Assembly (NCBI GenBank): GCA_964588285.1
Contig: CAZPNX010000001.1
Coordinates: 143 to 64,142, forward strand
Direction: 5' to 3'
DNA length: 64,000 nucleotides
Source of the DNA: an uncultured bacterium
Lineage (GTDB): Bacteria; Edwardsbacteria; AC1; EtOH8
Both the position numbers and the translations under genes were made by a program. Positions 5,580 through 50,760 of the stretch are shown here, piece after piece (position 1 is the stretch's first letter; each line of letters begins with the position of its first letter). A model generated the notes under the pieces. The model made no database searches and was not told where the DNA came from. It saw nothing but the letters and a program-made list of their open reading frames with translations.

Positions 5580-7373
5580 ATGGCACGTTTCCGATACCGG
5601 GTGTTGTTCCTGACCAGCTGGTATCCTCACCCGGAGAATCCATATAACGGAATTTTCGTAAAGCGAAAGGCGGAGGCCCTAAAGCACCGCGCCGATGTCG
5701 CGGTGCTATTTGTTATTGGTGTGAAAGACACAAGGGGAAGATACCAAATTAAATCTTCTTACGAGTCTGGTATAAAGACTTGGAGGATATTTTATCGTTC
5801 TCCTTACTCCAAGCTGGGTCCTTTTAAAGTATTAACCGATCGGTTGCGATATCTTAGGTCTTGTCTGATAGGCCTTAGGATGGTTAAAGATGGTTTTGGA
5901 CGTCCTGACTTGGTTCATCTTCATGTCGTTCATCCAGCCGGATACGCGGCCTTGGCATTAAAACTATTTACCGGCATTCCTTATGTGCTGACAGAGCATT
6001 GCGATCTGGCCCTCAGGATTTCCCGAGGGCTGCAGAGGATCGGTCCAATCTCAAGGTGGCTGATGAGGCTGGTGATGGATCAGGCAGTAAAGGTAATGGT
6101 TGATTCCACCGCCATGCGCCAGGCATTGTGTGCCGAGGGTTTTCGAGACGATGCCGTGGTTATCGCCAATATCGTTGAGCCGGTTTCTGACACTGCGATT
6201 CGCCGACGGAAAGATAATGGATTTCGCTTGGTGCATGTGTCCTCGTTATGGGATCGGCAAAAAAATGTTTCCGGACTGTTGCATGCTTTAGTTGCTGCTG
6301 TCAAACAGTTGGTCCCGGAGAAAATTGTTCTCGATATTATCGGGGACGGGCCGGATAGAGAAATTTTACAATCTCTGGCTGGGGAACTTGGACTACTGGG
6401 GAAAGAGGTGCGTTTTCATGGGCAGCTGGATGAAGTAAATAAAAAAAAGCTTTTATTACAAGCCGATTGTTTTATATTAAGCAGCCGTTTTGAGGGTTTT
6501 TCTGTGGCCACCGCCGAAGCGTTATCTGCCGGATTGCCGGTGATCGTTACCGACTGCGGCGGTCCCCGTGACTTCGTGAATGAAGAAAACGGGATAACGG
6601 TACCGCCAGATGATCACCTTGCGCTTTCCCAAGCCATTGTCAGGATGTGCCGCGAAAGAGACAAGTATTCCCGGTTGGCAATCCAGAAGCAGGCCCAAAA
6701 AGCATTCGATTCGGAGAGCCTTATCAATGCCACTTTGGCAATTTATGACCAAGTGCCGGTGCGTTGGACGGCTGGCCTAAGCTGGGAAAGGATCGAGGTA
6801 AATCCAGAATGGCTGGTGCTGGATGTCGGCAGCGGCCACAACCCGAACGGACGGGCCGACATCCTGCTGGATCGCGGCCTGGAGCCCTCGGAACACCGTA
6901 CCGGGCAGCGAACGGTCATCCCTACAGGGAGAGGAATGGTCATCGGCGATGCCACCGCCATGCCATTTATTAACGGCGCCTTTGACTACGCCATCGCCTC
7001 CCACATAGCCGAACATGTGGAGCAAGTAGAGGCCCTGATGTCGGAACTACAGCGGGTTGCCCAGAGGGGGTATCTGGAGACTCCGGGTCTCTTGACCGAA
7101 TATATAAGCAACGTGCCTTATCACCGTTGGCTGGTGCGTAAAACCATTGATGGGATTGTATTTGAGCGAAAGAAAATATTCCGAGTTCCCAACCCGCTGC
7201 TCTTCGCTTTTTTTAATTTGAACGACAGCATAGACGGCAGAAAAACATATAAAAGCCATAATTCATTCTTGATGGCCGTCCACCGATCGATAACTAGAGT
7301 CTGGAAATTTCTGCCGTCGGCTTACACTAAATACCACTGGCAGGGAAACATAAAATATCAAGTCCGACGTTAG
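5580..7373 (+). CDS. GT4 glycosyltransferase fused to a C-terminal class I SAM-dependent methyltransferase domain
   Basis: N-terminal GT4 region ('RYRVLFLTSWYP', 'EGFSVATAEALSAGLPVIVTDCGGPRDFV'). C-terminal region has 'LVLDVGSGHNPNGRADILLDRGLEP...DATAMPFINGAFDYAIASHIAEHV' (SAM-binding motif I plus the Methyltransf_11-like post-I region). Start chosen at the internal Met 'MARFRY'. Confidence 0.75.
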   Translation: MARFRYRVLFLTSWYPHPENPYNGIFVKRKAEALKHRADVAVLFVIGVKDTRGRYQIKSSYESGIKTWRIFYRSPYSKLGPFKVLTDRLRYLRSCLIGLRMVKDGFGRPDLVHLHVVHPAGYAALALKLFTGIPYVLTEHCDLALRISRGLQRIGPISRWLMRLVMDQAVKVMVDSTAMRQALCAEGFRDDAVVIANIVEPVSDTAIRRRKDNGFRLVHVSSLWDRQKNVSGLLHALVAAVKQLVPEKIVLDIIGDGPDREILQSLAGELGLLGKEVRFHGQLDEVNKKKLLLQADCFILSSRFEGFSVATAEALSAGLPVIVTDCGGPRDFVNEENGITVPPDDHLALSQAIVRMCRERDKYSRLAIQKQAQKAFDSESLINATLAIYDQVPVRWTAGLSWERIEVNPEWLVLDVGSGHNPNGRADILLDRGLEPSEHRTGQRTVIPTGRGMVIGDATAMPFINGAFDYAIASHIAEHVEQVEALMSELQRVAQRGYLETPGLLTEYISNVPYHRWLVRKTIDGIVFERKKIFRVPNPLLFAFFNLNDSIDGRKTYKSHNSFLMAVHRSITRVWKFLPSAYTKYHWQGNIKYQVRR

Positions 7374-18014: not shown

Positions 18015-19892
18015 ATGGAGAGATTCGAAAAAAGGCGCTGGTTTCTTTTTCTGGCAGATATCCTGCTGGTGAATTTGGCTCTGTGGCTGGCATTCGCTTT
18101 GCGATTCGAATGGGCCATCCCCGAGGTCTATCGGCCTTACTACTGGCAGATAGCGGTTTTCGTCACCCTTCTCAGGATAACGCTACTGGCGTTGCTAGGG
18201 CTTTATCGCGGTGTCTGGCGATACATCGGAATCAGCGACCTGATGGCCATCCTCAAGGCGGTCAGCCTGGGAACGGTGATGATGGCGGCTTCCGCTTTCC
18301 TGGCCAGGCGTTTGGATTACGCCTCCTGGGGATTGCCGCTGGAATGGCTGGAGGGCTATCCCCTGAGCGTGATGGTGGCCGAGTGGCTGGGAGCCATCAT
18401 CCTGATCGGTGGCCTGCGTCTGGGTCTGAGGCTACTGCAGCGGCACCGGGTGATTACCCGATACCGCCACCTGGAAAGGAAGCGGGTTTTGATCATCGGA
18501 GCAGGCGATGCCGGCGAAATGGTGGCCAGGCAGCTGCTGGCCCATCCCGAGTTCGGCTATCAGCCGGTTGGCTTTATCGACGACGATCCCCGCAAGCAAA
18601 ATAGGCGCATACACGGCCTGCCCATTATAGCCGGACGCGACCAGATATTCCAGGTGGTACTGGAACGCCGAGTGGAGGAGATCATTATCGCCATCCCCTC
18701 GGCCCCAGGCTCAGTTGTCCGGGAACTGGTGGAGCAGTGTCGTCGGGCCAAGCTCAAATTCAAGATCGTGCCCGGCATCAAGGACATCATCGAGGGGGAG
18801 GTCAGCCTCAGCCAGATCCGGGAGGTGGAGCTTGAGGATCTGTTGGGGCGCCAGCCGGTCAGCCTCAATATGGATGAGATCTCGGGTTATCTGACCGGAA
18901 AAAGAGTGCTGGTGAGCGGGGCCGGCGGCTCCATCGGAGCTGAGCTCTGTCGTCAGATAGCCGGTTTAGGACCGGAACGGTTGGTGATGTTGGGCAAGGG
19001 CGAGAACAGCCTCTACGAGATCGAGTATGAACTTACCCATCGCTTTAAGGGGCTTCCCCTGATAGCGGCGGTGGGGGATGTGGGCGACCGGGCGCGGATG
19101 GAACAAATCTTTGGAGAGTACCGGCCCCAAGTGGTATTTCATGCGGCCGCCCACAAGCATGTTCCCTTGATGGAAGCCAATCCCGGCGAGGCTGTTAAAA
19201 ACAACGTTTTCGGCACCAAAACGCTAGCCGAGGCCTCTATTGCGGCTGGTGTGGAACGCTTCGTATTCATCTCTACAGACAAGGCGGTCAATCCCACCAG
19301 CATTATGGGGGCCACCAAGCGGCTGGCCGAGGATGTGCTTTCCGCTTTGGAGGCTAAAGGCCGAACCAAGTTCATCACCGTCCGCTTCGGCAATGTGCTG
19401 GGCAGCCGCGGCAGCGTGGTGCCTCTCTTCAAGCGGCAGATCGCGGCCGGGGGGCCGGTCACCGTCACCCACCCGGAAGTGGAGCGCTATTTCATGACCA
19501 TCCCCGAGGCGGTGCAGCTGGTGATCCAAGCTGGGGCTATGGGCCGGGGCGGCGAGATCTTCGTCTTGGACATGGGCAAACCCGTCAAGATAGTGGATCT
19601 GGCCCGAGACCTGATAATCCTTTCCGGCTTGGAGCCGGAAACCGACATTTCCATCGAGTTCACCGGACTGCGGCCGGGAGAGAAACTCTATGAGGAATTG
19701 ATGACGGCCGAGGAGGGGGTAAACGCCACCAGACATTCCCAGATTTTCGTGGCCCGGGCCAGACGTTTCCAGCCGGGCCAACTCGACAAGATCCTGAAAC
19801 GTCTGGAGAATGCCTCACGTAGAGGACACCACAGACAGATCGTAAGCGCCCTGAAAAGCTGTCTTCCCAGCTATCGGCCGAGCGAAAAATGA
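18015..19892 (+). CDS. membrane-anchored UDP-N-acetylglucosamine 4,6-dehydratase (PglF/WbpM/CapD family)
   Basis: Four N-terminal TM helices, then two Rossmann domains: 'VLIIGAGDAGEMV' and 'VLVSGAGGSIGAELCRQI'; 'FISTDKAVNPTSIMGATKRLAE' catalytic region. Confidence 0.9.
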   Translation: MERFEKRRWFLFLADILLVNLALWLAFALRFEWAIPEVYRPYYWQIAVFVTLLRITLLALLGLYRGVWRYIGISDLMAILKAVSLGTVMMAASAFLARRLDYASWGLPLEWLEGYPLSVMVAEWLGAIILIGGLRLGLRLLQRHRVITRYRHLERKRVLIIGAGDAGEMVARQLLAHPEFGYQPVGFIDDDPRKQNRRIHGLPIIAGRDQIFQVVLERRVEEIIIAIPSAPGSVVRELVEQCRRAKLKFKIVPGIKDIIEGEVSLSQIREVELEDLLGRQPVSLNMDEISGYLTGKRVLVSGAGGSIGAELCRQIAGLGPERLVMLGKGENSLYEIEYELTHRFKGLPLIAAVGDVGDRARMEQIFGEYRPQVVFHAAAHKHVPLMEANPGEAVKNNVFGTKTLAEASIAAGVERFVFISTDKAVNPTSIMGATKRLAEDVLSALEAKGRTKFITVRFGNVLGSRGSVVPLFKRQIAAGGPVTVTHPEVERYFMTIPEAVQLVIQAGAMGRGGEIFVLDMGKPVKIVDLARDLIILSGLEPETDISIEFTGLRPGEKLYEELMTAEEGVNATRHSQIFVARARRFQPGQLDKILKRLENASRRGHHRQIVSALKSCLPSYRPSEK

Positions 19893-38921: not shown

Positions 38922-40694
38922 ATGGCGCAGAACCTGGCCGAGATGCTGATGAAGATGGGCCTTTTAACCAAGGCCCAGTACGATAAAGCGGTGCTGGAGC
39001 AGAAGACGGCGGCCGAGCCTCAGGCGGCCACCTTGGTGCGCCTGGGCATGGTCACCGAGAACGTCATGACCCAGTTTCTCTCCCGCCAGTTCAACGTACC
39101 CTCCATGGACCTGTCAAACTTTCAGGTGGAGCCGGCAGTGCTGAAGCTGGTCAAGGCCGACGTGGCCAACCGCTTCCTGGCGGTGCCCATCAAGCGGTTG
39201 GGCCGCAGCCTGACGGTGGCCATGGTCGATCCCTCGGATATCTTCGCCCTGGAGGATATCAAGTTTCTCACCGGGCTGGAGGTCAAGCCGGTGGCCGCCG
39301 GCTACAACGCCATCCGCAAACTCTTGGAGCAGCATTATCCTCTGGGAAAGGACCTGACGGTCATCTCGGAGACGGCCGGAAATCTTGCCCAGATCAAGGA
39401 TCAGGTTCTGGAGGAGCTGCCCGTATCCGAACTGGCCGAGGCCGGCTCCGGGGACATGGAGATGGAGTGGGTGGACGATGGGGAGGTCGAGGAGGACGTG
39501 GACATCTCCCAACTGCAGCAGGCCGGCCAGGCCACCCCGGTGGTCAAGATGGTAAACTACATCATGACCGAGGCGGTGCGGCGAGGGGCCTCGGACATCC
39601 ACATTGAGCCCTACGAGAAACTGTTCCGGGTGCGCCTGCGTCAGGACGGGGTGCTGCAGACCCTGATGGAGCCGCCCCTGAGGATGAAGGCTCCGTTGGT
39701 GGCCCGCATCAAGGTCATGTCCAAGCTCAACGTCACCGAGAGGCGCAAGCCCCAGGATGGCCGCATCGCCCTCAAGGTGCTGGGGAAGAAGATCGACCTG
39801 CGGGTTTCCACACTGCCGGTGCTGTTCGGCGAAAAGGTGGTGATGCGTATCTTGGACGCCAGCTCCCTGACGCTGGACCTGGCCAACTTTGGCTTTACAG
39901 AGCTGGCCCTGCGCAACTTCATGAAGGCCATCCACGCCCCCTACGGCATTCTGCTGATAACCGGCCCCACCGGCTCGGGCAAGACCACCACATTGTACTC
40001 GGCCCTGTCCCAGCTGAACACGCCCGACCGCCACATTCTGACGGTGGAGGACCCCATCGAGTACAACCTTAAGGGCATAAACCAGATCCAGGCCGAGCCC
40101 CAGATAGGCCTGACCTTTGGGGCGGCCCTGAGGGCCATGCTCCGGCAGGCGCCCAATATCATCATGCTGGGCGAGATCCGTGACGGGCCGACGGCCGAAA
40201 TCGCGGTCCGGGCGGCTCTCACCGGACACCTGGTTCTATCCACCCTGCACACCAACGACGCCCCGTCCTCGGTGTCGCGTCTGATAGACATGGGCATCGA
40301 GCCGTTCCTGGTGGCCTCCTCGTGCATTCTGATCCAGGCCCAGCGTTTGGTGCGCCGCATTTGCAAACAGTGTAAGGCCCCGGCCAATGTCAACCCCCAG
40401 CTTTTGTACGACATGGGATACAAACCCGAGGACATCAAGGATGTGGCCTTCTTCAAGGGCAAAGGCTGCTCGGTCTGCAACAATACCGGATACAAGGGCC
40501 GGGTGGGTCTGTACGAGGTGATGCCCATCACCCCGGAGATACGGGAGATGATACTTACCAAGCAGGCGGTGACCACCATTCGGGCCAAGGCGGTGGAGCA
40601 GGGCATGCTCACCCTGCGCATGGACGCCTGGGGCAAGGTCAAGCAGGGGATGACCACGGTGGAGGAGATGATCCGGGAAACGGCCGAAGGCTAA
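38922..40694 (+). CDS. pilB: PilB/GspE-family ATPase (paralogue 3); N-domain MshEN motifs degenerate
   Basis: 'GPTGSGKTTT', 'CKQC...CSVC'. N-domain 'NLAEMLMKMGLLTKAQYDKAVLEQ' (LG to LA) and 'AATLVRLGMVTENVMTQFLSRQ' (leading RLG lost). Confidence 0.9.
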   Translation: MAQNLAEMLMKMGLLTKAQYDKAVLEQKTAAEPQAATLVRLGMVTENVMTQFLSRQFNVPSMDLSNFQVEPAVLKLVKADVANRFLAVPIKRLGRSLTVAMVDPSDIFALEDIKFLTGLEVKPVAAGYNAIRKLLEQHYPLGKDLTVISETAGNLAQIKDQVLEELPVSELAEAGSGDMEMEWVDDGEVEEDVDISQLQQAGQATPVVKMVNYIMTEAVRRGASDIHIEPYEKLFRVRLRQDGVLQTLMEPPLRMKAPLVARIKVMSKLNVTERRKPQDGRIALKVLGKKIDLRVSTLPVLFGEKVVMRILDASSLTLDLANFGFTELALRNFMKAIHAPYGILLITGPTGSGKTTTLYSALSQLNTPDRHILTVEDPIEYNLKGINQIQAEPQIGLTFGAALRAMLRQAPNIIMLGEIRDGPTAEIAVRAALTGHLVLSTLHTNDAPSSVSRLIDMGIEPFLVASSCILIQAQRLVRRICKQCKAPANVNPQLLYDMGYKPEDIKDVAFFKGKGCSVCNNTGYKGRVGLYEVMPITPEIREMILTKQAVTTIRAKAVEQGMLTLRMDAWGKVKQGMTTVEEMIRETAEG

Positions 40695-40789: not shown

Positions 40790-41863
40790 ATGATCACCCT
40801 GCAGCAGCTTCTGGAGGAACTGATCCAAAAGAAGGCCACCGACCTCCACCTGACGGCCGGGGTGCCCCCGGTTTTCCGCATCGACGGGGAGCTGGTCCAG
40901 TCCAACCACGAGATCATGACCCCGCAGATGACCGAGCAGCTGGCCTACAGCATTCTTACCGACCAGCGGAAAAAGCGCTTTGAAATGGAAAAGGAACTGG
41001 ACCTGTCCATAGGCATCACCGGCCTGTCGCGATTTAGGGGCAACGTCTTCCTGCAGCGGGGCGGGGTGGCCATGGCCCTGCGCACCATTCCCTGGGAGAT
41101 CCGCTCCTTCCAGGCCCTGGGTCTGCCTCCGGTGGCGGCCGAGCTGTCCGACAAGCCCAAGGGGCTGGTGCTGGTGACCGGGCCCACCGGTTCCGGCAAA
41201 TCCACCACCCTGGCCACCATGCTGGACAAGGTCAATTCCGAGCGCCGCTCCCACATTCTGACAGTGGAGGACCCCATCGAATATATGCACCACCACAAGA
41301 AGTGCATCGTCAACCAGCGGGAATTGGAGTCAGACACCAAGAGCTTCGGAAACGCCCTGAAGTACGCCCTGCGCCAGGATCCGGACGTGGTGCTGATAGG
41401 CGAAATGCGGGACCTGGAAACCATCGAGGCCGCTTTGCGCATCTCGGAGACCGGGCACCTGACCTTTGCCACCCTGCACACCAACTCGGCCATGGAGTCC
41501 ATCCACCGCATCATCGACGTCTTCCCGCCGCACCAGCAGTCACAGGTGCGGGCCCAGCTGGCCTTTGTGCTGGAGGGGGTGATGACCCAGCAGCTGGTGC
41601 CTATGACCCGCGGGGGCCGCTGTCTGGCGTTGGAGATCATGATCTGCACCCCGGCCATCAAAGCCCTGATCCGCGACGACAAGGTTCACCAAATCTACTC
41701 CCTGATGCAGGCCGGCCAGAAGTACGGCATGCAGACCATGAACCAATCACTGTTCCAGCTGTTTATGGACAAGAAGATTTCTTTAGACACGGCCCTGGAT
41801 TACTCTCCGGCTGTGGAAGAGCTGGATCAGATGATCAAGCGGAGAACGGCAAACGCGGTGTGA
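40790..41863 (+). CDS. pilT: twitching motility retraction ATPase PilT
   Basis: Lacks the GspE N-domain. 'ATDLHLTAGVPPVFRIDGEL', Walker A 'GPTGSGKSTT', 'AIKALIRDDKVHQIYSLMQAGQKYGMQTMNQSL' PilT C-terminal motif. Confidence 0.9.
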   Translation: MITLQQLLEELIQKKATDLHLTAGVPPVFRIDGELVQSNHEIMTPQMTEQLAYSILTDQRKKRFEMEKELDLSIGITGLSRFRGNVFLQRGGVAMALRTIPWEIRSFQALGLPPVAAELSDKPKGLVLVTGPTGSGKSTTLATMLDKVNSERRSHILTVEDPIEYMHHHKKCIVNQRELESDTKSFGNALKYALRQDPDVVLIGEMRDLETIEAALRISETGHLTFATLHTNSAMESIHRIIDVFPPHQQSQVRAQLAFVLEGVMTQQLVPMTRGGRCLALEIMICTPAIKALIRDDKVHQIYSLMQAGQKYGMQTMNQSLFQLFMDKKISLDTALDYSPAVEELDQMIKRRTANAV

Positions 41864-42227: not shown

Positions 42228-43442
42228 ATGCCAGTCTACGTATGGAAGGGGCGGGACTCCAAGTCCGGCATTGCTACCGGCGAGATGACGGCCGAAAACG
42301 AGGCGGCAGTCATCGAGGCCCTGCGCAAACGGAACGTCATCGTCTCCTCGGTCAGGCCCAAGCCCAAAGAGCTGAAGATGCCGGGCTTCATGGCCAGCAA
42401 GGTCTCCAGCCGGGACCTGTCCATCTTTACCCGCCAGTTTGCCACCATGATCAACGCCGGCCTGCCCCTGGTGCAGTGCCTGGAGATCCAGGCCGCCCAG
42501 CAGGAGAGCCCGGTGTTCAAGAAGGTTATCGAACAGGTGAAAACCGACGTCGAGGGCGGCTCCACCTTGGCCGAGGCCCTTAAGCGGCAGAAGCAGGTCT
42601 TCTCCGAGCTATACATCAACATGGCCGCGGCCGGAGAGGCCGGCGGTATTTTGGACAACATCCTTCTCCGCCTGGCGGTCTACTTGGAGAAGGCCGAGGC
42701 CCTGGCCCGGAAGATCAAAGGGGCCATGATCTACCCGGTGATCATGATCTGCGTGGCCATCGGCGCGGCCGCGGTGCTCTTGATATTCGTCATCCCCATC
42801 TTCGAGAAAATGTTCGGCGAGATGGGGGCCAAGCTGCCGGGCCCAACCCTGTTTGTCATCGGGCTTTCCAAATTTCTTCAAAAATATATAATTCTGATAA
42901 TTGCCGTCATTGCCGGAGCCATCTTCGCCATTCGCAACTGGTACAAAACAGACAAGGGCCAGTTATTTTTAGACCAGTTGATGCTGAAGATTCCCATTCT
43001 GGGAGACCTGCAGCAGAAATCTTCCATCGCCCGGTTCGCCCGGACCCTGGGGACGCTCTTGGCCTCGGGCGTGGCCATTTTGGACGCTCTGGAGATCACG
43101 GCCAAGACGGCCGGCAACCGGGTGGTCCAGGACGCCATTTTGTCGGCCCGCAAGTCAATCGGCGGCGGCGAGACCATCTCGGCGCCTTTAAAGACCATGA
43201 AGATCTTCCCGCCGATGGTGGTCCAGATGATCTCGGTGGGCGAGGCCACCGGCGGCCTGGACGAGATGCTCAACAAGATCGCCGATTTCTACGACGAGGA
43301 GGTGGACACCGCGGTGGAGAACCTGACCGCGGCCATGGAGCCCATGATCATGGTGGTTTTGGGCTTGGGCATTGGCGGCCTGGTGATCTCCATGTATCTG
43401 CCCATCTTCACCATGACCTCGGCCCTGATGGGCGGTAAATGA
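42228..43442 (+). CDS. pilC: type IV pilus platform protein PilC (GspF family)
   Basis: Duplicated GspF domains, 3 TM helices, 'MPVYVWKGRDSKSGIATGEMTAENEAAVIEALRKRNV' N-terminus. Confidence 0.9.
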   Translation: MPVYVWKGRDSKSGIATGEMTAENEAAVIEALRKRNVIVSSVRPKPKELKMPGFMASKVSSRDLSIFTRQFATMINAGLPLVQCLEIQAAQQESPVFKKVIEQVKTDVEGGSTLAEALKRQKQVFSELYINMAAAGEAGGILDNILLRLAVYLEKAEALARKIKGAMIYPVIMICVAIGAAAVLLIFVIPIFEKMFGEMGAKLPGPTLFVIGLSKFLQKYIILIIAVIAGAIFAIRNWYKTDKGQLFLDQLMLKIPILGDLQQKSSIARFARTLGTLLASGVAILDALEITAKTAGNRVVQDAILSARKSIGGGETISAPLKTMKIFPPMVVQMISVGEATGGLDEMLNKIADFYDEEVDTAVENLTAAMEPMIMVVLGLGIGGLVISMYLPIFTMTSALMGGK

Positions 43443-43687: not shown

Positions 43688-45904
43688 ATGAACCTTAAAA
43701 CCCCGTTTGCCGGCAATATTTCCTGGCTGGTTCGGTTGGGGCTTATGGTCCTGCTCCTGACCAGCGCGGCCGCCCTGGGCCGAATGGGCGTTCTTTCGAT
43801 CCGGCTGGGATGGGCTTTGTTGTTCAGCGCCGTATATCTGGCGGCCACCGCCGGACTGGCCGTCTGGAGGCGTCCGGATCTGAGGGCTGCAGCCGATTAC
43901 GCTCACATTTTGCTGGATATTTTATGGATTTTCGCCTTCATCCGGGCCGTGGGCGGGGCAGAAAGCCCGTTCTCACTGCTCTTCTTCCTGACCATCATCC
44001 AGGCGGCCAACGTCCGTTTTTTACGGGGGGCCATCGGGTCGGCGGCGCTCTCCAGCTTGGCCTTTGCCCTTTTGCTAGTCATGGAGTATAAATCCTGGGC
44101 CGCCGTTCAGCAGGGGGCGGGGTCGGCCGAGCTGATGGCCGCCTTCAGGGCCGACTTCCTTTTCCGGGGATATGTCTACGCCATCTGCTTCTTTGTGGTG
44201 GCCGCGCTTTCCGGCATCCTGGCCGAGAGGCTACGCCTTAAGGGCCGCCAGCTGGAGGCGGCCGCCCGCGGCTGGGAGGAGTTCCGTCTCTCCACCGGAG
44301 ACATCCTCAAGAAAATGGGCTCCGGCCTGCTGACGGTCAACGCCAACGGCCAGGTACGCTATTGCAACCGGACCGGGGCCGAAATTTTGGGCCTAGCAGA
44401 AGACAATATCGAGGGTTTGCAGATCAGCGAGGCCTTTAAGGGGAGGAACAACGCCTTTGGTTCGATTCTGGAATCAACCCTGCGGGCCGATCTGGAGCCG
44501 CCGGATGATGAAAGCCAGAGTGCCCAGGCCTCCAAGCGCCGATTGACCGATGTCCGTCGGGAACTGATTCTGCAGCGGGAGGATGGGTCGGAAATACCAA
44601 TCGGCATAAGCACCACCACGGTGCGGGACGCCGAGGGCAGGGTGCAGGGTCTGATCGCCATTTTCCAAAACCTGACAGAGGCCAAGCGCATTGAGGGCCG
44701 CCTGCAACAGATGGAGAAACTGGAGGCCCAGAACGAGCACACCCATATATTGTTGACCATGGTCCAGCCGATGCTGGCCGGCATCGAGCAGGACATCGGC
44801 CGGGCGACCGAGCGCTTTTCCGGGGCCGAGCTTGAAGAGTTGTCCCGGGACATCGGGGCCAAGGTGGAATCGGTGCGCCGGGTGATTGAGGACTTCATGC
44901 GCTATGCCCGGATCGAGATCCCCCAGGAACGCCGTGAGGACGGGGGGAATCCGCCGTCCGAAGAGAAGGCGGTCATCGGACGTTCCCGTATTTTTCTAAA
45001 AACCATGGAGCTGGTGGGACAGGTGGCGGCCTCTGACAGCACGGTGCTGCTCCAGGGCGAGTCCGGCACCGGCAAGGAGCTGCTGGCCCGGGAGATCCAC
45101 CGGTTAAGCAAGCGGCGCCACGGGCCTTTCGTCACCATCAACTGCGCCGCCCTGCCCGAGGGTCTTTTGGAGTCCGAGCTTTTTGGGCATGTCCGGGGCT
45201 CGTTCACCGGGGCGGTGCGGGACAAGGACGGTCTGTTTAGGGCAGCCGACGGGGGCACCTTCTTTTTGGACGAGGTTTCCGAGACTTCGCCGGCCATCCA
45301 GGTCAAGCTTTTAAGGGTGCTGCAAGAGAGGGAGATCGTTCCGGTCGGCGGTTCCAAGCCCATCAAGGTGGATGTCAGGTTGATTTCGGCCACCAATGCC
45401 GTTTTGGCAGACTTGGTGGAAAAGGGCCGGTTCCGCAGCGACCTGTTCTACCGGCTTAATGTAATCCCCATAAGCATTCCGCCCCTAAGGGAGCGGGAGG
45501 ATGACATCCTGCTGTTGGCCGAGCACTTTATCGCCAAATACTGCCAAAAGACGGGAAAGCCAATGATGGGGTTTTCCGAGCGGGCCGAGAAGGCCTTAAA
45601 ATCGTATAGATGGCCTGGGAACGTCAGGGAGCTGGAGAACGCCATGGAAAGGGCGGTGGTGGTTTCAGATTCGGTCAAAATAGAATTGGAGGACCTGCCC
45701 AAGAACGTTCAGGAGGCTGGGAAGTCACAGAAACAAATCCCTGAAATCAGGGCCGGCGAAGGGACCCTGCGCGAAAAGGAGATGGAGTCCATTGTCCGCG
45801 CTCTTAGGGAGGAGAAAGGCAACAAGAAGCTGGCGGCCAAAAGGTTGGGGATACATTACGCCACGCTGTATCGGAAGATCAAGCAGTATGGGCTGGAAGG
45901 CTAA
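43688..45904 (+). CDS. sigma-54-dependent transcriptional activator with N-terminal integral-membrane sensor and PAS domain (no receiver domain)
   Basis: ~190-aa N-terminus with 5-6 TM helices, then a PAS-like region ('[22 protein letters not shown]'). AAA+ sigma54 domain '[18 protein letters not shown]', 'GSFTGA', 'GGTFFLDEV'. C-terminal Fis-type HTH '[23 protein letters not shown]'. Confidence 0.85.
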
Positions 45905-45993
45905 CATACCCACCTCGAACATGCCCTTCGGCTATGCTCAGGGCAGCGCTCGGTATATGCCACGTTCCCATCGATTCTAAGTGAACAAGGCAT

Positions 45994-46025
45994 ATTGCAA
46001 AATGCGAAAAGTTGCATTTTGCAAT
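45994..46025. promoter_or_regulatory. perfect 12-bp inverted repeat (candidate enhancer/UAS) upstream of the pilin sigma-54 promoter
   Basis: ATTGCAAAATGC-gaaaagtt-GCATTTTGCAAT, ~115 bp upstream of the -24 element. Confidence 0.45.
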
Positions 46026-46138
46026 ATAAAAGAACAGTAAGAAAATTAAGAAAACATTGCTGGAAATATCTGTGATTTATAAACTCTTTATATTCAAAGA
46101 CTAACAAAATCATAAAAATTATAAAAAACTGTTGACTT

Positions 46139-46154
46139 TGGCACTTCGATTGCA
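46139..46154 (+). promoter_or_regulatory. sigma-54 (-24/-12) promoter of the major pilin gene
   Basis: TGGCAC-ttcga-TTGCA exactly matches the TGGCAC-N5-TTGC(A/T) consensus, 67 nt upstream of the pilin ATG and directly downstream of the sigma-54 activator gene. Confidence 0.75.
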
Positions 46155-46220
46155 TTATAATTTAATGGAATTCTAACAAAACCAACAACCAACCATTTAA
46201 CACTTTAGGAGGCAAAACGG

Positions 46221-46763
46221 ATGAACAACAAAGGCTTCACCCTCATCGAGCTGATGATCGTGGTGGTCATCATCGGCATCTTGGCAGCCATCGCCATCCC
46301 CAACTTCATCTCCATGCAAAACCGGGCTAAGGAAGCCAGCGTCAAGTCTAACATGCATACAATCCAGTTGGCGGCCGAGGACTTTAGCACCATTACCGAG
46401 GGAACATATCCTTCGGACTGCGCTACAACCATAGGGCAAGTAAGAACAGTCATTTTCGGCGCTGGCGATCCATTGGCAGCCGATCCTCGCTCGCTTTGTG
46501 GCGCAGCTGCCGGCTTAACTCCTGCCGCTGCCAACAGCATGGTCCCATCCAACATGAGAAATCCGATAGTGGGCGCCAATAACGCGTTCCAGTCGGTAGG
46601 TATCAATGCGGTGCACGCTCCCGGCACTTCGGGGACAGTCGGTTTCGAATCCTTTGACAACGCGGCAGCTACACCAGCTGCGATCGGAGCTGCCGTGCGG
46701 TACGAGATTGATGGTGACGGTGTCACCGCAGTCATAGCGACTGTATTGACCTCTGGTCAGTAA
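46221..46763 (+). CDS. pilA: type IVa major pilin (PilA-like)
   Basis: Prepilin leader 'MNNKG' then 'FTLIELMIVVVIIGILAAIAIPNF' (class III signal, Glu+5). SD AGGAGG. Ala/Pro/Ser/Thr-rich C-terminal half. Confidence 0.9.
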   Translation: MNNKGFTLIELMIVVVIIGILAAIAIPNFISMQNRAKEASVKSNMHTIQLAAEDFSTITEGTYPSDCATTIGQVRTVIFGAGDPLAADPRSLCGAAAGLTPAAANSMVPSNMRNPIVGANNAFQSVGINAVHAPGTSGTVGFESFDNAAATPAAIGAAVRYEIDGDGVTAVIATVLTSGQ

Positions 46764-46780
46764 TAATCAGCTCGATGGAA

Positions 46781-46815
46781 GATGGGCCGTATTGTAAAAT
46801 ACGGCCCATCTTTTT
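46781..46815 (+). terminator. rho-independent terminator after the pilin gene
   Basis: GATGGGCCGTAT-tgtaaa-ATACGGCCCATC followed by TTTTT. Confidence 0.75.
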
Positions 46816-47360: not shown

Positions 47361-48359
47361 ATGAAGCACGGGAACAGAAGAAAAAGCATTCTGCTCAATA
47401 AGCGGATGCAGCTTAGCCTGGTATTCAGGATACTTGGAATTTCTTTGATCAGCATCCTGCTGATTGGCGGTTGCATATATCTGACCATCTGGATCCACGT
47501 AACATCTTCGGCCTTTGCTTCCGGAAAGATGTCGATGATCCAGATTTTCGACCGAGTCCATATGTTGCTGGCAGCGGTCCTTCCGGCGGCAGTCCTCTTA
47601 GTATTGTGGATGGGATTGCACATTTCCCATTCGATACTGGGGCCGCTGGTGAGGCTGGAAAACGAGTTCAAATCCATCAGACAGAATGGCTGGCATGGCC
47701 AGCCATTGAAGTTCAGGAAAAACGACGGCTTCGCCGAGCTAGCGATGGAGTTCAACGCCATGATGGATAGTCTGCAGCCTCAGGGAAAACCCTCCATTGG
47801 CCCTACAACTCCTGCTACTGAGCCTGGGAAAGAAAAATTCAAGTACGCCGGAGGCTTCACCCTCATCGAGTTGATGATCGTAGTCGTCATTATCGGCATA
47901 TTAGCGGCTATCGCGGTCCCCAACTACATCTCTATGCGTTTGCGGGCGCTTGAGGCCTCCTTAAAAGCGAATATGCATACCCTACAATGCGTTGTCGAGG
48001 AGTTCAACACCATGGCCGACGGCACATACCCGGGCGGTCTTGATGTCAGAGTGTCTGCCGTCATTCCAGCAGGGATAAATTCGTCCATTGCCGAAGGCGT
48101 CAGGATACCACCATTCCCCGCCAATGCGCTTATAAGCCCCCATGCAGGATATGCTAACCCGTTCAACCGCGCGTCAAATGCACTAGATGACTTAGCGGCT
48201 GGACCACCAGCGGTTGCACCCAGCGGTAACGTTTATTATACAGCCTATAATCAATTAGGTAATGTGACAAACGGCGTAGAAAACGCCGCATCAAGATATG
48301 TAATAACAGCTTATGGCAATAATGCACCGCTAAGCTTAGTGTTGAGATCCGGGCAATAG
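47361..48359 (+). CDS. 2TM-HAMP module fused in frame to a type IV pilin domain (or pilin with an extraordinarily long leader)
   Basis: Residues 1-135: two TM helices plus HAMP-like 'ILGPLVRLENEFKSIRQNG...NDGFAELAMEFNAMMDSL'. Then a Pro/Thr-rich linker, then 'KFKYAGG|FTLIELMIVVVIIGILAAIAVPNY' at residue 166 (F codon at 47856). No stop codon between the two parts. Confidence 0.7.
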   Translation: MKHGNRRKSILLNKRMQLSLVFRILGISLISILLIGGCIYLTIWIHVTSSAFASGKMSMIQIFDRVHMLLAAVLPAAVLLVLWMGLHISHSILGPLVRLENEFKSIRQNGWHGQPLKFRKNDGFAELAMEFNAMMDSLQPQGKPSIGPTTPATEPGKEKFKYAGGFTLIELMIVVVIIGILAAIAVPNYISMRLRALEASLKANMHTLQCVVEEFNTMADGTYPGGLDVRVSAVIPAGINSSIAEGVRIPPFPANALISPHAGYANPFNRASNALDDLAAGPPAVAPSGNVYYTAYNQLGNVTNGVENAASRYVITAYGNNAPLSLVLRSGQ

Positions 48360-48412: not shown

Positions 48413-49357
48413 ATGCACCTACCCATCCTCCAGATCGTAAACCTCTCCAAGACCTTCCACGACTGGGAGCACCTCAGATTCCGCCCCATCCCTGTGCTCA
48501 AGAGTATCTCGTTGGAGGTGCAAAAAGGGGAGATCTTTGGCTTTTTGGGCCCCAACGGGGCCGGCAAGACCACTACCATCAAGACCCTGATGGGCATCAT
48601 CCGGCCAACCTCGGGCACGGCCCGCATCCTGGGCCATGACCTGGTGGAGCATTCCCAGGAGGTGAAAAAACGCACCGGATTCCTGCCGGAGAACCCATAT
48701 TTTTACGATTACCTGAAGGTGGGCGAGTTCGTGGAATTCTGCGGGTCGCTGTTCGGCCAGGACCGGGCTTTCCGCCGTCGACGAGCGGCCGAGCTTTTGG
48801 AGATGGTGGGCATGTCTCATGCCGCCAACCTGCCCTTGAGAAAATGCTCCAAAGGGATGCTGCAGAGGACCGGCATCGCACAGTCCCTGGTCAACGACCC
48901 CGACTTCCTGGTGTGGGACGAGCCGGTCTCGGGCCTGGACCCGATAGGGAGGAAGGAGATCAAGGACCTGATGCTGGACTTGAGAAGGCGGGGCAAGACC
49001 ATCTTCTTCAGTTCCCACATCCTGCCCGATGCCGAGGCCCTGTGCGACAGGGTGGCCATTATTATCAATGGAGAAGTGAATACCATCGGAACCCTTCCCG
49101 AACTGATGAAAGACGCGGTTTCGTGGGTTGAAATCGTGGCCGAGGACCTCAAGCAAGGCTTTAAGTACCGGGAGGCGACGGTGGAGAACGTGGCCAATCA
49201 GACAATCTTTAAGATAAAAGATATCAAGCATTTAGATAATATTCTTAAAGCGATTATTGAGAAAAAAGGCAGAGTAATCTCCGTGACCCCACAAAGGGAG
49301 AACCTGGAAACCTACTTTGCCAGGCAGGTTAAGGCCCGGGGCCGGAAGCCGGGTTGA
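48413..49357 (+). CDS. ABC transporter ATP-binding protein (ABC-2 type exporter)
   Basis: Walker A 'GPNGAGKTTT', signature-like 'CSKGMLQRTGIAQSL', Walker B 'FLVWDEP'. Confidence 0.85.
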   Translation: MHLPILQIVNLSKTFHDWEHLRFRPIPVLKSISLEVQKGEIFGFLGPNGAGKTTTIKTLMGIIRPTSGTARILGHDLVEHSQEVKKRTGFLPENPYFYDYLKVGEFVEFCGSLFGQDRAFRRRRAAELLEMVGMSHAANLPLRKCSKGMLQRTGIAQSLVNDPDFLVWDEPVSGLDPIGRKEIKDLMLDLRRRGKTIFFSSHILPDAEALCDRVAIIINGEVNTIGTLPELMKDAVSWVEIVAEDLKQGFKYREATVENVANQTIFKIKDIKHLDNILKAIIEKKGRVISVTPQRENLETYFARQVKARGRKPG

Positions 49358-49359
49358 GG

Positions 49360-49965
49360 ACCTTACCCTCTGTTCCCTCCCCCGCAGGGAGAGGGACGGC
49401 CCCTTCCCCTGCGGGGAAGGGGCCGGGGTTAGGTCAAAGGGCTGGCTGGTCGTTGAGTGCCGCCTTGTCCCGATAAAACCTACGGCCACTTGACATGCGG
49501 CGGGTGTACTTGTGCCGAGCCGGGTCGAGGCTTCGAGACGGCCGGCGGCCCCCTCTCCGGGATCGGAGAGGGCAGGGTGAGGGCATGTCCCGCTTGGTGC
49601 GCCATGCCCGAAGCTTGAGACAGGGTTCCACTGATGCCGAAAGGTTATTGTGGAGGCATTTAAGGGATAGAAGACTGGCGGGTTTCAAATTCAGAAGGCA
49701 GTCCCCTATAGGTAGATATATAGTAGATTTCGTCTGCTTCGAAGCCAAGGTGATATTGGAATTGGATGGAAGCCAGCATGCCGAGGAAGCTCAGGCCGAG
49801 AGGGATTGTGTCAGGGACGAGTGGCTGGGAAGCCAGGGGTTCGAGGTGCTTAGGTTTTGGAACACGGAAGTGATAAAGAACGTAAGTGGTGTGCTGATGA
49901 AGATAAGGGAGGCGTGCCAGCGCACCCTCACCTAAGTCCTCTCCCATCAAGGGAGAGGTGTCGAG
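49360..49965. mobile_element. DUF559 (Vsr-like endonuclease) mini-element with flanking CCCTCTCC/GGAGAGGG hairpins, inserted between the ABC ATPase and permease genes
   Basis: Hairpins at 49398-49424 (GGCCCCTTCCCC-tgc-GGGGAAGGGGCC), 49551-49572 (CCCTCTCCG-ggat-CGGAGAGGG) and 49938-49958 (CCTCTCCC-atcaa-GGGAGAGG). Inverted GGGTGAGGG (49575-49583) / CCCTCACC (49924-49931) bracket the ORF. Confidence 0.65.
49585..49935 (+). CDS. DUF559 domain protein (very-short-patch-repair endonuclease-like fold)
   Basis: 'ERLLWRHLRDRRLAGFKFRRQSPIGRYIVDFVCFEAKVILELDGSQH...DEWLGSQGFEVLRFWNTEV' is the characteristic DUF559 sequence. Start chosen at internal Met 'MSRLV'. Confidence 0.75.
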   Translation: MSRLVRHARSLRQGSTDAERLLWRHLRDRRLAGFKFRRQSPIGRYIVDFVCFEAKVILELDGSQHAEEAQAERDCVRDEWLGSQGFEVLRFWNTEVIKNVSGVLMKIREACQRTLT

Positions 49966-49992
49966 CGGAGTAAGTAGAATCGGGTACAAGCC

Positions 49993-50760
49993 ATGAAACG
50001 CATACTTGCCATCGCCCAAAACACCTTCAAGGAGACGGTGCGGGACCGGATCCTCTACGGACTGGTGGTCTTCGTCCTGTTGCTGCTGCCGGGCTCCCGC
50101 CTGGTGATACCCCTGGCCATCGGCCAGGAGCTGAAAATCATGAAGGACTTCGGCTTTGCCGCCATCGCCCTGTTCGGGCTGATGATCGCAGTGGTGGTGG
50201 GCACCGCCTTGGTGCACAAGGAACTGGACAAACGGACCATCTACGTGCTGGTGGCCAAACCGGTGCGGCGCTGGGAGCTTTTGGTGGGCAAGTATTTCGG
50301 CCTGATGGCCACCATTCTGCTGGCCTTTCTGGTGATGTTCGCAGTTTTGGCGGCCACGGTGCTGTCGCTGGGAGGCAGGCTGGACTGGCTGCTGGTCCTG
50401 ACCGTGGCCGGTCTTTTCCTGCAACTGGCGGCGGTGACCGGCCTGGCCATTTTCTTTTCCACCTTGGCCTCCCCGGCCCTATCGGCCGTTTTCACCATCT
50501 GCCTTTATATCGCAGGCACGGCCGCCGATCAGCTGCGACTGTTCGCCGAGCGCATGCCGGGGACCTTCGTCAAGCTGGCGGTCAAGGGTGCCTCATATCT
50601 GGTACCCAACCTCCACCTGTGCAGCTTCCGCAACGAGGCCGTCTACGGACTGCCGGTGTCTGGGGGCAAGGTGCTGATCATGCTGGCATATATACTGATC
50701 TACACCTCCCTGGTCCTGCTGATATCCTCGGCCATCCTGGAGAGGAAGGACCTTAAGTGA
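49993..50760 (+). CDS. ABC-2 family transporter permease
   Basis: Six TM helices; 'MKRILAIAQNTFKETVRDRILYGLVVFVLLLL' is the typical ABC-2 permease N-terminus. Confidence 0.8.
   Translation: MKRILAIAQNTFKETVRDRILYGLVVFVLLLLPGSRLVIPLAIGQELKIMKDFGFAAIALFGLMIAVVVGTALVHKELDKRTIYVLVAKPVRRWELLVGKYFGLMATILLAFLVMFAVLAATVLSLGGRLDWLLVLTVAGLFLQLAAVTGLAIFFSTLASPALSAVFTICLYIAGTAADQLRLFAERMPGTFVKLAVKGASYLVPNLHLCSFRNEAVYGLPVSGGKVLIMLAYILIYTSLVLLISSAILERKDLK

Follow-up and report, generated by a model that had tools for sequence, protein, structure and literature searches.

The stretch of DNA analyzed here (the window, 64 kb in full) carries a cluster of type IV pilus (pil) genes, and the nearest genomes to this locus are uncultured Edwardsbacteria/UBP2-like bins. 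Within the cluster, the gene of a sigma-54 activator is followed by the major pilin gene on the same strand, and the intergenic region between them (45905–46220) contains a sigma-54 promoter, an overlapping sigma-70-type promoter, and an upstream palindrome composed of two dyad units. This intergenic region, as the candidate control region of the pilin gene, is the subject of the analysis. The features concerned are as follows.

43688–45904, forward strand: sigma-54 activator gene, 738 amino acids (aa), assigned by Pfam domains and alignments.
45992–46027: predicted upstream activating sequence, a perfect 14-N8-14 inverted repeat with the arms ATATTGCAAAATGC and GCATTTTGCAATAT.
45995–46007: distal dyad unit TTGCAAAATGCGA, one mismatch to TTGCA-N3-TGCAA, centered at about −164 from the predicted transcription start and 139 bp upstream of the GG of the −24 element.
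46012–46024: proximal dyad unit TTGCATTTTGCAA, an exact TTGCA-N3-TGCAA, centered at about −147 from the predicted start and 122 bp upstream of the −24 GG.
46028–46131: AT-rich spacer with several A-tracts and one weak match, at 46078–46092 and with one mismatch, to an integration host factor (IHF) site.
46132–46161, forward strand: sigma-70-type promoter TTGACT-N18-TATAAT, matching 11 of 12 positions of TTGACA/TATAAT, a consensus that may not be that of the housekeeping sigma factor of this lineage.
46139–46154, forward strand: sigma-54 −24/−12 promoter TGGCAC-ttcga-TTGCA (TGGCACttcgaTTGCA), with TGGCAC at 46139–46144 and TTGCA at 46150–46154.
46162–46220, forward strand: 5′ leader with a CA-rich tract (AACAAAACCAACAACCAACCA) and the Shine-Dalgarno sequence AGGAGG.
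46221–46763, forward strand: major type IV pilin gene, 180 aa, product starting with MNNKGFTLIELM and carrying the N_methyl motif (Pfam).
46780–46815, forward strand: intrinsic terminator with a 13-bp G+C-rich stem, a GTAA loop and a T-run (TTTTT), folding at −32 kcal/mol (z −7.6).

The sigma-54 element had been proposed in an earlier sequence-only reading of this DNA, and direct inspection showed that the TGGCAC-N5-TTGCA match is exact, with the GG and GC doublets exactly 10 bp apart and 11 of 11 specified positions agreeing with TGGCAC-N5-TTGCW. The element is intergenic, lies on the forward strand, and is separated by 66 nucleotides (nt) from the pilin ATG at 46221, as that reading had it when placing the element 67 nt before the ATG; in relatives, this distance is mostly 51–67 nt. 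When the GC at 46152–46153 is taken as −13/−12, the transcription start is predicted at approximately 46165. The exact pattern occurs only once on both strands of the window (the mean over shuffled sequences is 0.06, with at least one match in 6 of 100 shuffles), and three matches (46139, 18088, and 16217) are found against 4.8 expected when one mismatch is permitted. The second best match, at 18088–18103 (TGGCATTCGCTTTGCG), sits within the open reading frame (ORF) 18015–19892, has no upstream dyad, and is probably a chance occurrence. The sigma-54 motif is therefore only mildly surprising by itself, and it is its position and conservation that carry weight. We fetched 168 related loci with the activator protein as query, using scans of genome collections and metagenomes, and aligned the DNA upstream of 33 pilin genes of Edwardsbacteria, Eisenbacteria, Fermentibacteria, and a sister clade; the search pattern was relaxed to admit the variants ATGCA at −12, found in locus L001, and TGGCAA at −24, found in Fermentibacteria. 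The alignment revealed that TGGCA[C/T/A]-N5-[T/A]TGC[A/T/G] is invariant in 33 of 33 regions, with the N5 and the flanks being variable, which is the pattern that a functional −24/−12 promoter would be expected to show.

Upstream of this promoter, the sequence-only reading had described a perfect 12-bp palindrome. The core 12-N8-12 palindrome, ATTGCAAAATGC-N8-GCATTTTGCAAT, is indeed located at 45994–46025 as described, but its arms extend to 14 bp, and the unit is a 13-bp dyad present twice. Comparison of approximately 45 related pil loci indicated that this functional unit is TTGCA-N3-TGCAA, and that the long palindrome results from two such units with their centers 17 bp apart. The palindrome is separated from the sigma-54 promoter by 113 nt, consistent with the previous estimate of about 115 bp, and the paired site lies approximately 130 bp upstream of the promoter. 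The AT-rich tract noted before was also borne out, with a G+C content of 22% at 46026–46140 versus 52–68% in the upstream activator gene, and we presume that this spacer is the looping segment, although its AT-richness is lost in L161. An IHF site within the spacer was considered and found unsupported, given that the match at 46078–46092 has a mismatch and that the AT-richness is not kept in L161. With up to one mismatch allowed, the 13-bp core has two copies in the 64 kb, both of them here and 17 bp apart, against a chance expectation of 2.1; since the count within the window is at chance level, the significance comes from the adjacency of the copies and from cross-species conservation. No second regulon member was detected in the 64-kb window, in which the mismatch-tolerant counts of both motifs are at chance.

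Comparison with the related loci revealed that the palindrome is conserved at the level of individual bases. In L001, whose activator is 77% identical, the palindrome block is identical at 34 of 36 positions, while the rest of the intergenic region aligns poorly; in L161 and L167/L168 (activators 75–76% identical), both 12-bp arms are exact. As L167 and L168 are two contigs carrying one and the same protein, the distinct relatives with an exact 12-N8-12 are L001, L161, and L167. The 8-nt spacers of the palindrome differ among the relatives (GAAAAGTT, GAAAATTA, GAAAATTC, and AAAAAATG), and the flanks are unrelated. Two dyad units 17 bp apart are also found in L091 and L002, and a single unit is found in L086/L163, Fermentibacteria, and Eisenbacteria. 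Across Edwardsbacteria, Eisenbacteria, and Fermentibacteria, the dyad lies upstream of pilin −24/−12 promoters at 65–144 bp from the GG; the Eisenbacteria dyads have constant arms at a constant 115 bp from the GG, whereas their N3 and flanking bases vary and are rich in G+C, and in Fermentibacteria the dyad begins 6–12 bp past the pilR stop codon. The motif was first defined on one set of loci and only then detected in those of Fermentibacteria and Eisenbacteria and in the metagenome loci, so that these later matches were predictions. In total, 23 exact copies of TTGCA-N3-TGCAA are present in the 1.06 Mb of fetched loci, with 20 of them sitting 40–200 bp upstream of a pilin sigma-54-like element; these intervals total 6.6 kb, in which 0.02 copies are expected, giving a nominal P of 1e-53 that, like the phasing value below, treats the loci as more independent than their shared phylogeny allows. 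The other three copies are also located in the pil cluster, in or near the activator–pilin gap. The distances from site to GG (23 lineage-level values, 65–136 bp) cluster with a period of 10.5–10.75 bp (R 0.47, reached by 2.4% of random sets), which is suggestive of face-of-helix dependence, as would be expected for looping. Conserved dyads at enhancer distance, next to a gene for a sigma-54 activator, support the enhancer geometry put forward in the sequence-only reading. That reading had named as evidence against itself a lack of other occurrences and of conservation upstream of pilA orthologues; both elements proved to be conserved there, and the proposal was not refuted. Limited literature searches turned up no regulatory site for Edwardsbacteria, Eisenbacteria, or Fermentibacteria. 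In L161 (4715–4965) and L167 (4186–4405), the segment between the activator stop and the enhancer also contains added G+C-rich repeats (cacacccctcgttcccctc...agaggggac), which are absent in the window and look like small mobile or repetitive extragenic palindromic (REP)-like repeats.

The dyad sequence changes together with the DNA-binding domain of the activator. The recognition-helix region of its helix-turn-helix (HTH) domain is (A/S)TL(Y/H)RK(I/L) in every clade with TTGCA-N3-TGCAA, while the L028/L088-L092 sister clade has the helix STMFRKL together with two TGTCA-N3-TGACA dyads 18 bp apart. This symmetric change of the site together with the helix fits the adjacent activator as the binder, suggesting that it is the protein that would bind the dyads. 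The dyads of L028, at approximately 6160–6200 (also in L088, L089, L090, and L092), have AAA/TTT centers and again form a long palindrome, upstream of TGGCAT-N5-ATGCA. Comparison of the clades also decided the fate of another candidate. The sequence-only reading had pointed out that the half-site contains the motif TTGCA, and a link to the TTGCA of the −12 element was rejected as a mechanism, as the two vary independently: the L028 clade combines TGTCA in the site with ATGCA at −12, and in Eisenbacteria TTGCA in the site goes with TTGCT at −12, so that the resemblance is coincidental.

Analysis of the activator indicated that it is a fusion of PilS and PilR parts. The Pfam domains are 6TM_PilS (residues 14–184; 33.4 bits, cut-off 27), PAS (206–334; PAS_9, 47 bits), Sigma54_activat (430–595; E 3e-68), AAA_lid (601–683), and HTH_8 (693–734; E 1e-11), and the same search of the protein found no HisKA, HATPase_c, or Response_reg. 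Residues 17–367 align to residues 51–372 of Eisenbacteria PilS, with the alignment ending just past the H-box position, and in this region the AHEIRN of PilS is replaced by THILLT; a remnant of the kinase dimerization helix lies between the PAS and AAA+ domains. Residues 425–737 are 55% identical to residues 140–449 of Eisenbacteria PilR, which is its AAA+-HTH part (313 residues). In comparison to PilR, the protein possesses the AAA+ domain, the GAFTGA-type loop, and the Fis-type HTH and is missing the receiver (REC); in comparison to PilS, it possesses the six-helix membrane domain and PAS and is missing HisKA/HATPase_c. Since the receiver and the kinase are both lacking, we name it a PilS::PilR-derived one-component activator rather than PilR, and the lack of a kinase ATPase and a receiver domain means that there is no phosphorelay and no activation by receiver phosphorylation. 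Walker A at residue 457, GSFTGA at 504, and Walker B at 525 are intact, as is HTH_8, and from these motifs the activator looks active. Eisenbacteria and Fermentibacteria have separate canonical pilS and pilR genes, with a receiver domain in PilR. The fused form is represented by approximately 45 protein clusters (686–744 aa), all from Edwardsbacteria/TA06-labelled or unclassified sources, so that the fusion is not an assembly artefact.

The fusion architecture itself is observed, and from the sequence we infer the mode of action of the activator. Tentatively, and at slightly less than an even chance, we suggest that a permanently membrane-anchored sigma-54 activator serves the enhancer, in which the six-helix pilin-sensing part of PilS and the PAS domain are fused, via the remnant dimerization helix, to the AAA+/HTH part of PilR and the phosphorelay is deleted. 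By analogy with PilS, the signal sensed may be the level of membrane pilin. If this suggestion is true, one polypeptide would turn the membrane pilin level into ATP-dependent promoter opening, either the pilin promoter would have to move to the membrane or proteolysis would have to free the activator, and the fusion activator and the overlapping sigma-70 promoter would together form a compact feedback switch. An incomplete literature search yielded no account of a sigma-54 activator that is itself membrane-integral, a result that speaks only weakly for novelty, and nothing relevant was found in the literature on Edwardsbacteria pili.

The strong terminator directly 3′ of the pilin gene, which was found by fold analysis and is absent from the calls of the consensus terminator scan, indicates that the pilin is a single-gene transcription unit driven from the region 45905–46220. 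On the comparative evidence, this region is likely to be the control region of that unit, combining a sigma-54 promoter with a paired enhancer for the adjacent activator. In the proposed mechanism, sigma-54 RNA polymerase would sit on the −24/−12 element as a closed complex, and dimers of the activator would bind the two dyads (about −147 and −164, 17 bp apart) via the C-terminal Fis-type HTH. The activator would then form an AAA+ ring, loop the AT-rich spacer of approximately 115 bp to reach the polymerase, and open the promoter using ATP and the GSFTGA loop. In the sub-clade that has both promoters, the sigma-70 and sigma-54 holoenzymes would probably compete for the overlapping DNA; sigma-70 would then either sustain basal expression or be occluded by sigma-54 up to the moment at which the activator fires. 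Of these steps, we infer DNA looping, promoter choice, and timing. Besides the relatedness of the loci compared, several points weigh against this mechanism. No rpoN was found when all six reading frames of the 64-kb window were translated and searched for the RpoN-box motif, and the presence of rpoN in this genome is instead suggested by the intact activator. With their centers 17 bp apart, the dyads would face almost opposite sides of the helix, unlike the sites in the classic NtrC layout. A protein predicted, like this activator, to be integral to the membrane also raises the question of how it would reach a chromosomal enhancer. Moreover, in the closest relatives the sigma-70 promoter is at least as well conserved as the sigma-54 promoter and may carry much of the pilin transcription.

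The last point leads to an alternative that is partly compatible with the proposed mechanism, namely that the pilin is transcribed mainly from the sigma-70-type promoter and that the sigma-54 site is an occluding brake or a relic. The −24/−12 element lies wholly inside the 18-nt spacer of the sigma-70-type promoter, an overlap that the sequence-only reading had passed over, as it had the membrane-anchored PilS::PilR fusion. The 11 of 12 positions matched in the window become 12 of 12 (TTGACA-N18-TATAAT) in L001, L161, L167, L163/L086, and L165, and L091 has TTGACT-N18-TATAAT, so that the hexamers and the 18-nt spacing are kept in seven close relatives. In L091, the sigma-54 element is located 1 nt further along and its −24 part is weakened to TGGTAT, and as the −35/−10 hexamers and their 18-nt spacing are nevertheless intact, the hexamers are under their own selection in this sub-clade. 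The same kind of overlap is known from gonococcal pilE, where sigma-N hinders the sigma-70 promoter (PMC6755734). However, more distant Edwardsbacteria and Eisenbacteria are without the −35/−10 hexamers yet retain the sigma-54 element and the upstream site, and a conserved enhancer together with a conserved activator carrying an intact GSFTGA makes little sense without sigma-54-dependent initiation; the sigma-70 match is, in addition, scored against TTGACA/TATAAT, with the reservation about the host's consensus given above. We therefore regard transcription mainly from the sigma-70-type promoter as rather unlikely. In the Fermentibacteria loci L064, L072, L073, L074, and L078, a conserved CTTGAC is found directly upstream of TGGCAA (approximately 10 bp), echoing the TTGAC of the window's clade.

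The remaining alternatives concern the palindrome and the dyads. The palindrome begins 88 nt past the activator stop and folds as RNA at −19 kcal/mol (z −5.1), as a 3′ hairpin terminating or stabilizing the activator mRNA might do, but its stem is AT-rich, neither a U-run nor a T-run follows 46027 or is found on the other strand, and the terminator scan makes no call there. Moreover, the long hairpin is not conserved, as L086/L163, Fermentibacteria, and Eisenbacteria keep one dyad only, which could pair over 5 bp around a 3-nt loop, too little to sustain a hairpin; it is the base identity of the arms that is conserved, not merely their pairing, and an Rfam search found no family matching the palindrome. 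This interpretation was accordingly rejected as very improbable. It is also improbable, although somewhat less so, that the dyads are bound by another regulator, such as a repressor or a nucleoid protein: the dyad does differ from the PilR site of Pseudomonas aeruginosa, a NifA-like TGT-N11-AGA with GTCT elements (PMC6058289), but the site travels with a pilR-type gene and a sigma-54 promoter in three phyla, at enhancer distance, and changes together with the recognition helix of the activator. An origin of both elements by chance, within intergenic DNA rich in AT, would agree with the chance-level count of the 13-bp core in the window and with the 6% of shuffles that hold an exact −24/−12 element; as both elements are kept at the same relative positions in many independent loci, the comparative data contradict this explanation, and we consider its probability negligible. 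Sigma-54-dependent activation through the paired dyads thus stays the preferred explanation of the region.

The genes preceding the activator gene, and the surroundings of the pilin gene, complete the picture of the locus. The upstream neighbors of the activator gene are the following.

38922–40694: pilB.
40790–41863: pilT.
42228–43442: pilC.

Downstream of the pilin gene follow a small ORF that matches no family, an ORF that fuses membrane, HAMP, and pilin parts, an ATP-binding cassette (ABC) ATPase, and an ABC-2 permease. The fusion ORF (47361–48359, 332 aa) has membrane segments and HAMP in its first approximately 160 residues, after which come a pilin N-terminus (GFTLIELM) and a pilin-like domain; L005 has an ORF of this architecture (from 6442), and cleavage of the product by the prepilin peptidase would free an unusually long “leader.” The ABC ATPase and ABC-2 permease genes (48413–50760) lie 3′ of the pilin genes, and we take them to be reminiscent of pilGHI in the Myxococcus pil cluster, just as the gene order pilB-pilT-pilC-regulator-pilA-ABC transporter presumably resembles that of the Myxococcus xanthus pil cluster. 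In the pilin leader, the CA-rich segment at 46170–46200 lies ahead of AGGAGG, and similar leaders precede the pilin in L001, L002, L004, L091, and L161; the segment may be unstructured and either enhance translation or bind a regulator.

These results provide a sequence-defined candidate enhancer and promoter for the type IV pilin genes of Edwardsbacteria, Eisenbacteria, and Fermentibacteria, and they document a conserved sigma-54/sigma-70 overlap at a pilin gene outside Neisseria. The natural specificity variant, in which TGTCA-N3-TGACA is combined with an altered helix, could guide work on the recognition code of Fis-type HTH domains. The part likeliest to interest specialists is that the dyad is a defined candidate DNA target for studying a membrane-integral AAA+ activator.

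Enhancers of NtrC consist of paired dyads for Fis-type HTH dimers, 100–150 bp upstream of glnAp2, from which the AAA+ ring reaches the sigma-54 polymerase by DNA looping, and the NtrC site is TGCACC-N5-GGTGCA. The region described here is similar in having two dyad sites at about −150, a Fis-family HTH, and an AAA+ activator for which ring assembly and looping to the sigma-54 polymerase are proposed; in contrast to NtrC, the site sequence is different, the 17-bp center spacing is shorter than in the NtrC pair, and receiver phosphorylation does not take part. In P. aeruginosa and Geobacter, pilA is known to be controlled by PilR together with sigma-54 (PMC6058289, PMC2725144). The PilS-PilR systems of P. 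aeruginosa, Geobacter sulfurreducens, and M. xanthus share with the window an activator gene directly upstream of the major pilin gene, a pilin −24/−12 promoter with activator sites upstream, and a PilS-type six-helix membrane domain of the same Pfam family (PMC6058289; PMC2725144). They differ in that PilS and PilR form a phosphorelay pair, whereas the regulator in the window is one polypeptide without a kinase ATPase or a receiver domain, in the site sequence (TGT-N11-AGA/GTCT in P. aeruginosa versus the TTGCA-N3-TGCAA dyad here), and in lineage, that of the window being uncultured and Edwardsbacteria-like. The gonococcal and class II meningococcal pilE genes of Neisseria likewise combine a sigma-70 promoter with an abutting or overlapping −24/−12 sigma-N element; there, sigma-N binding can hinder sigma-70, and in Neisseria elongata the active promoter is the sigma-N promoter with the activator Npa (PMC6755734). 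Unlike in Neisseria, the overlap here is total, with the −24/−12 element inside the 18-nt spacer, and unlike the vestigial Neisseria case, the sigma-54 promoter here is probably functional, since the activator and its GSFTGA look intact. A link to the membrane is shared with PspF/PspA and RedR2/BtdS, in which membrane sequestration inhibits a soluble sigma-54 activator (PMC10084136; PMC6003685), whereas here the activator itself has six predicted membrane helices. The arrangement of the cis elements is thus the one expected for a pilR-pilA locus and belongs to the well-known class of PilR/sigma-54 pilin promoters, and what is more unusual is the conserved overlap of the sigma-54 and sigma-70 promoters together with the predicted membrane anchoring of the activator.

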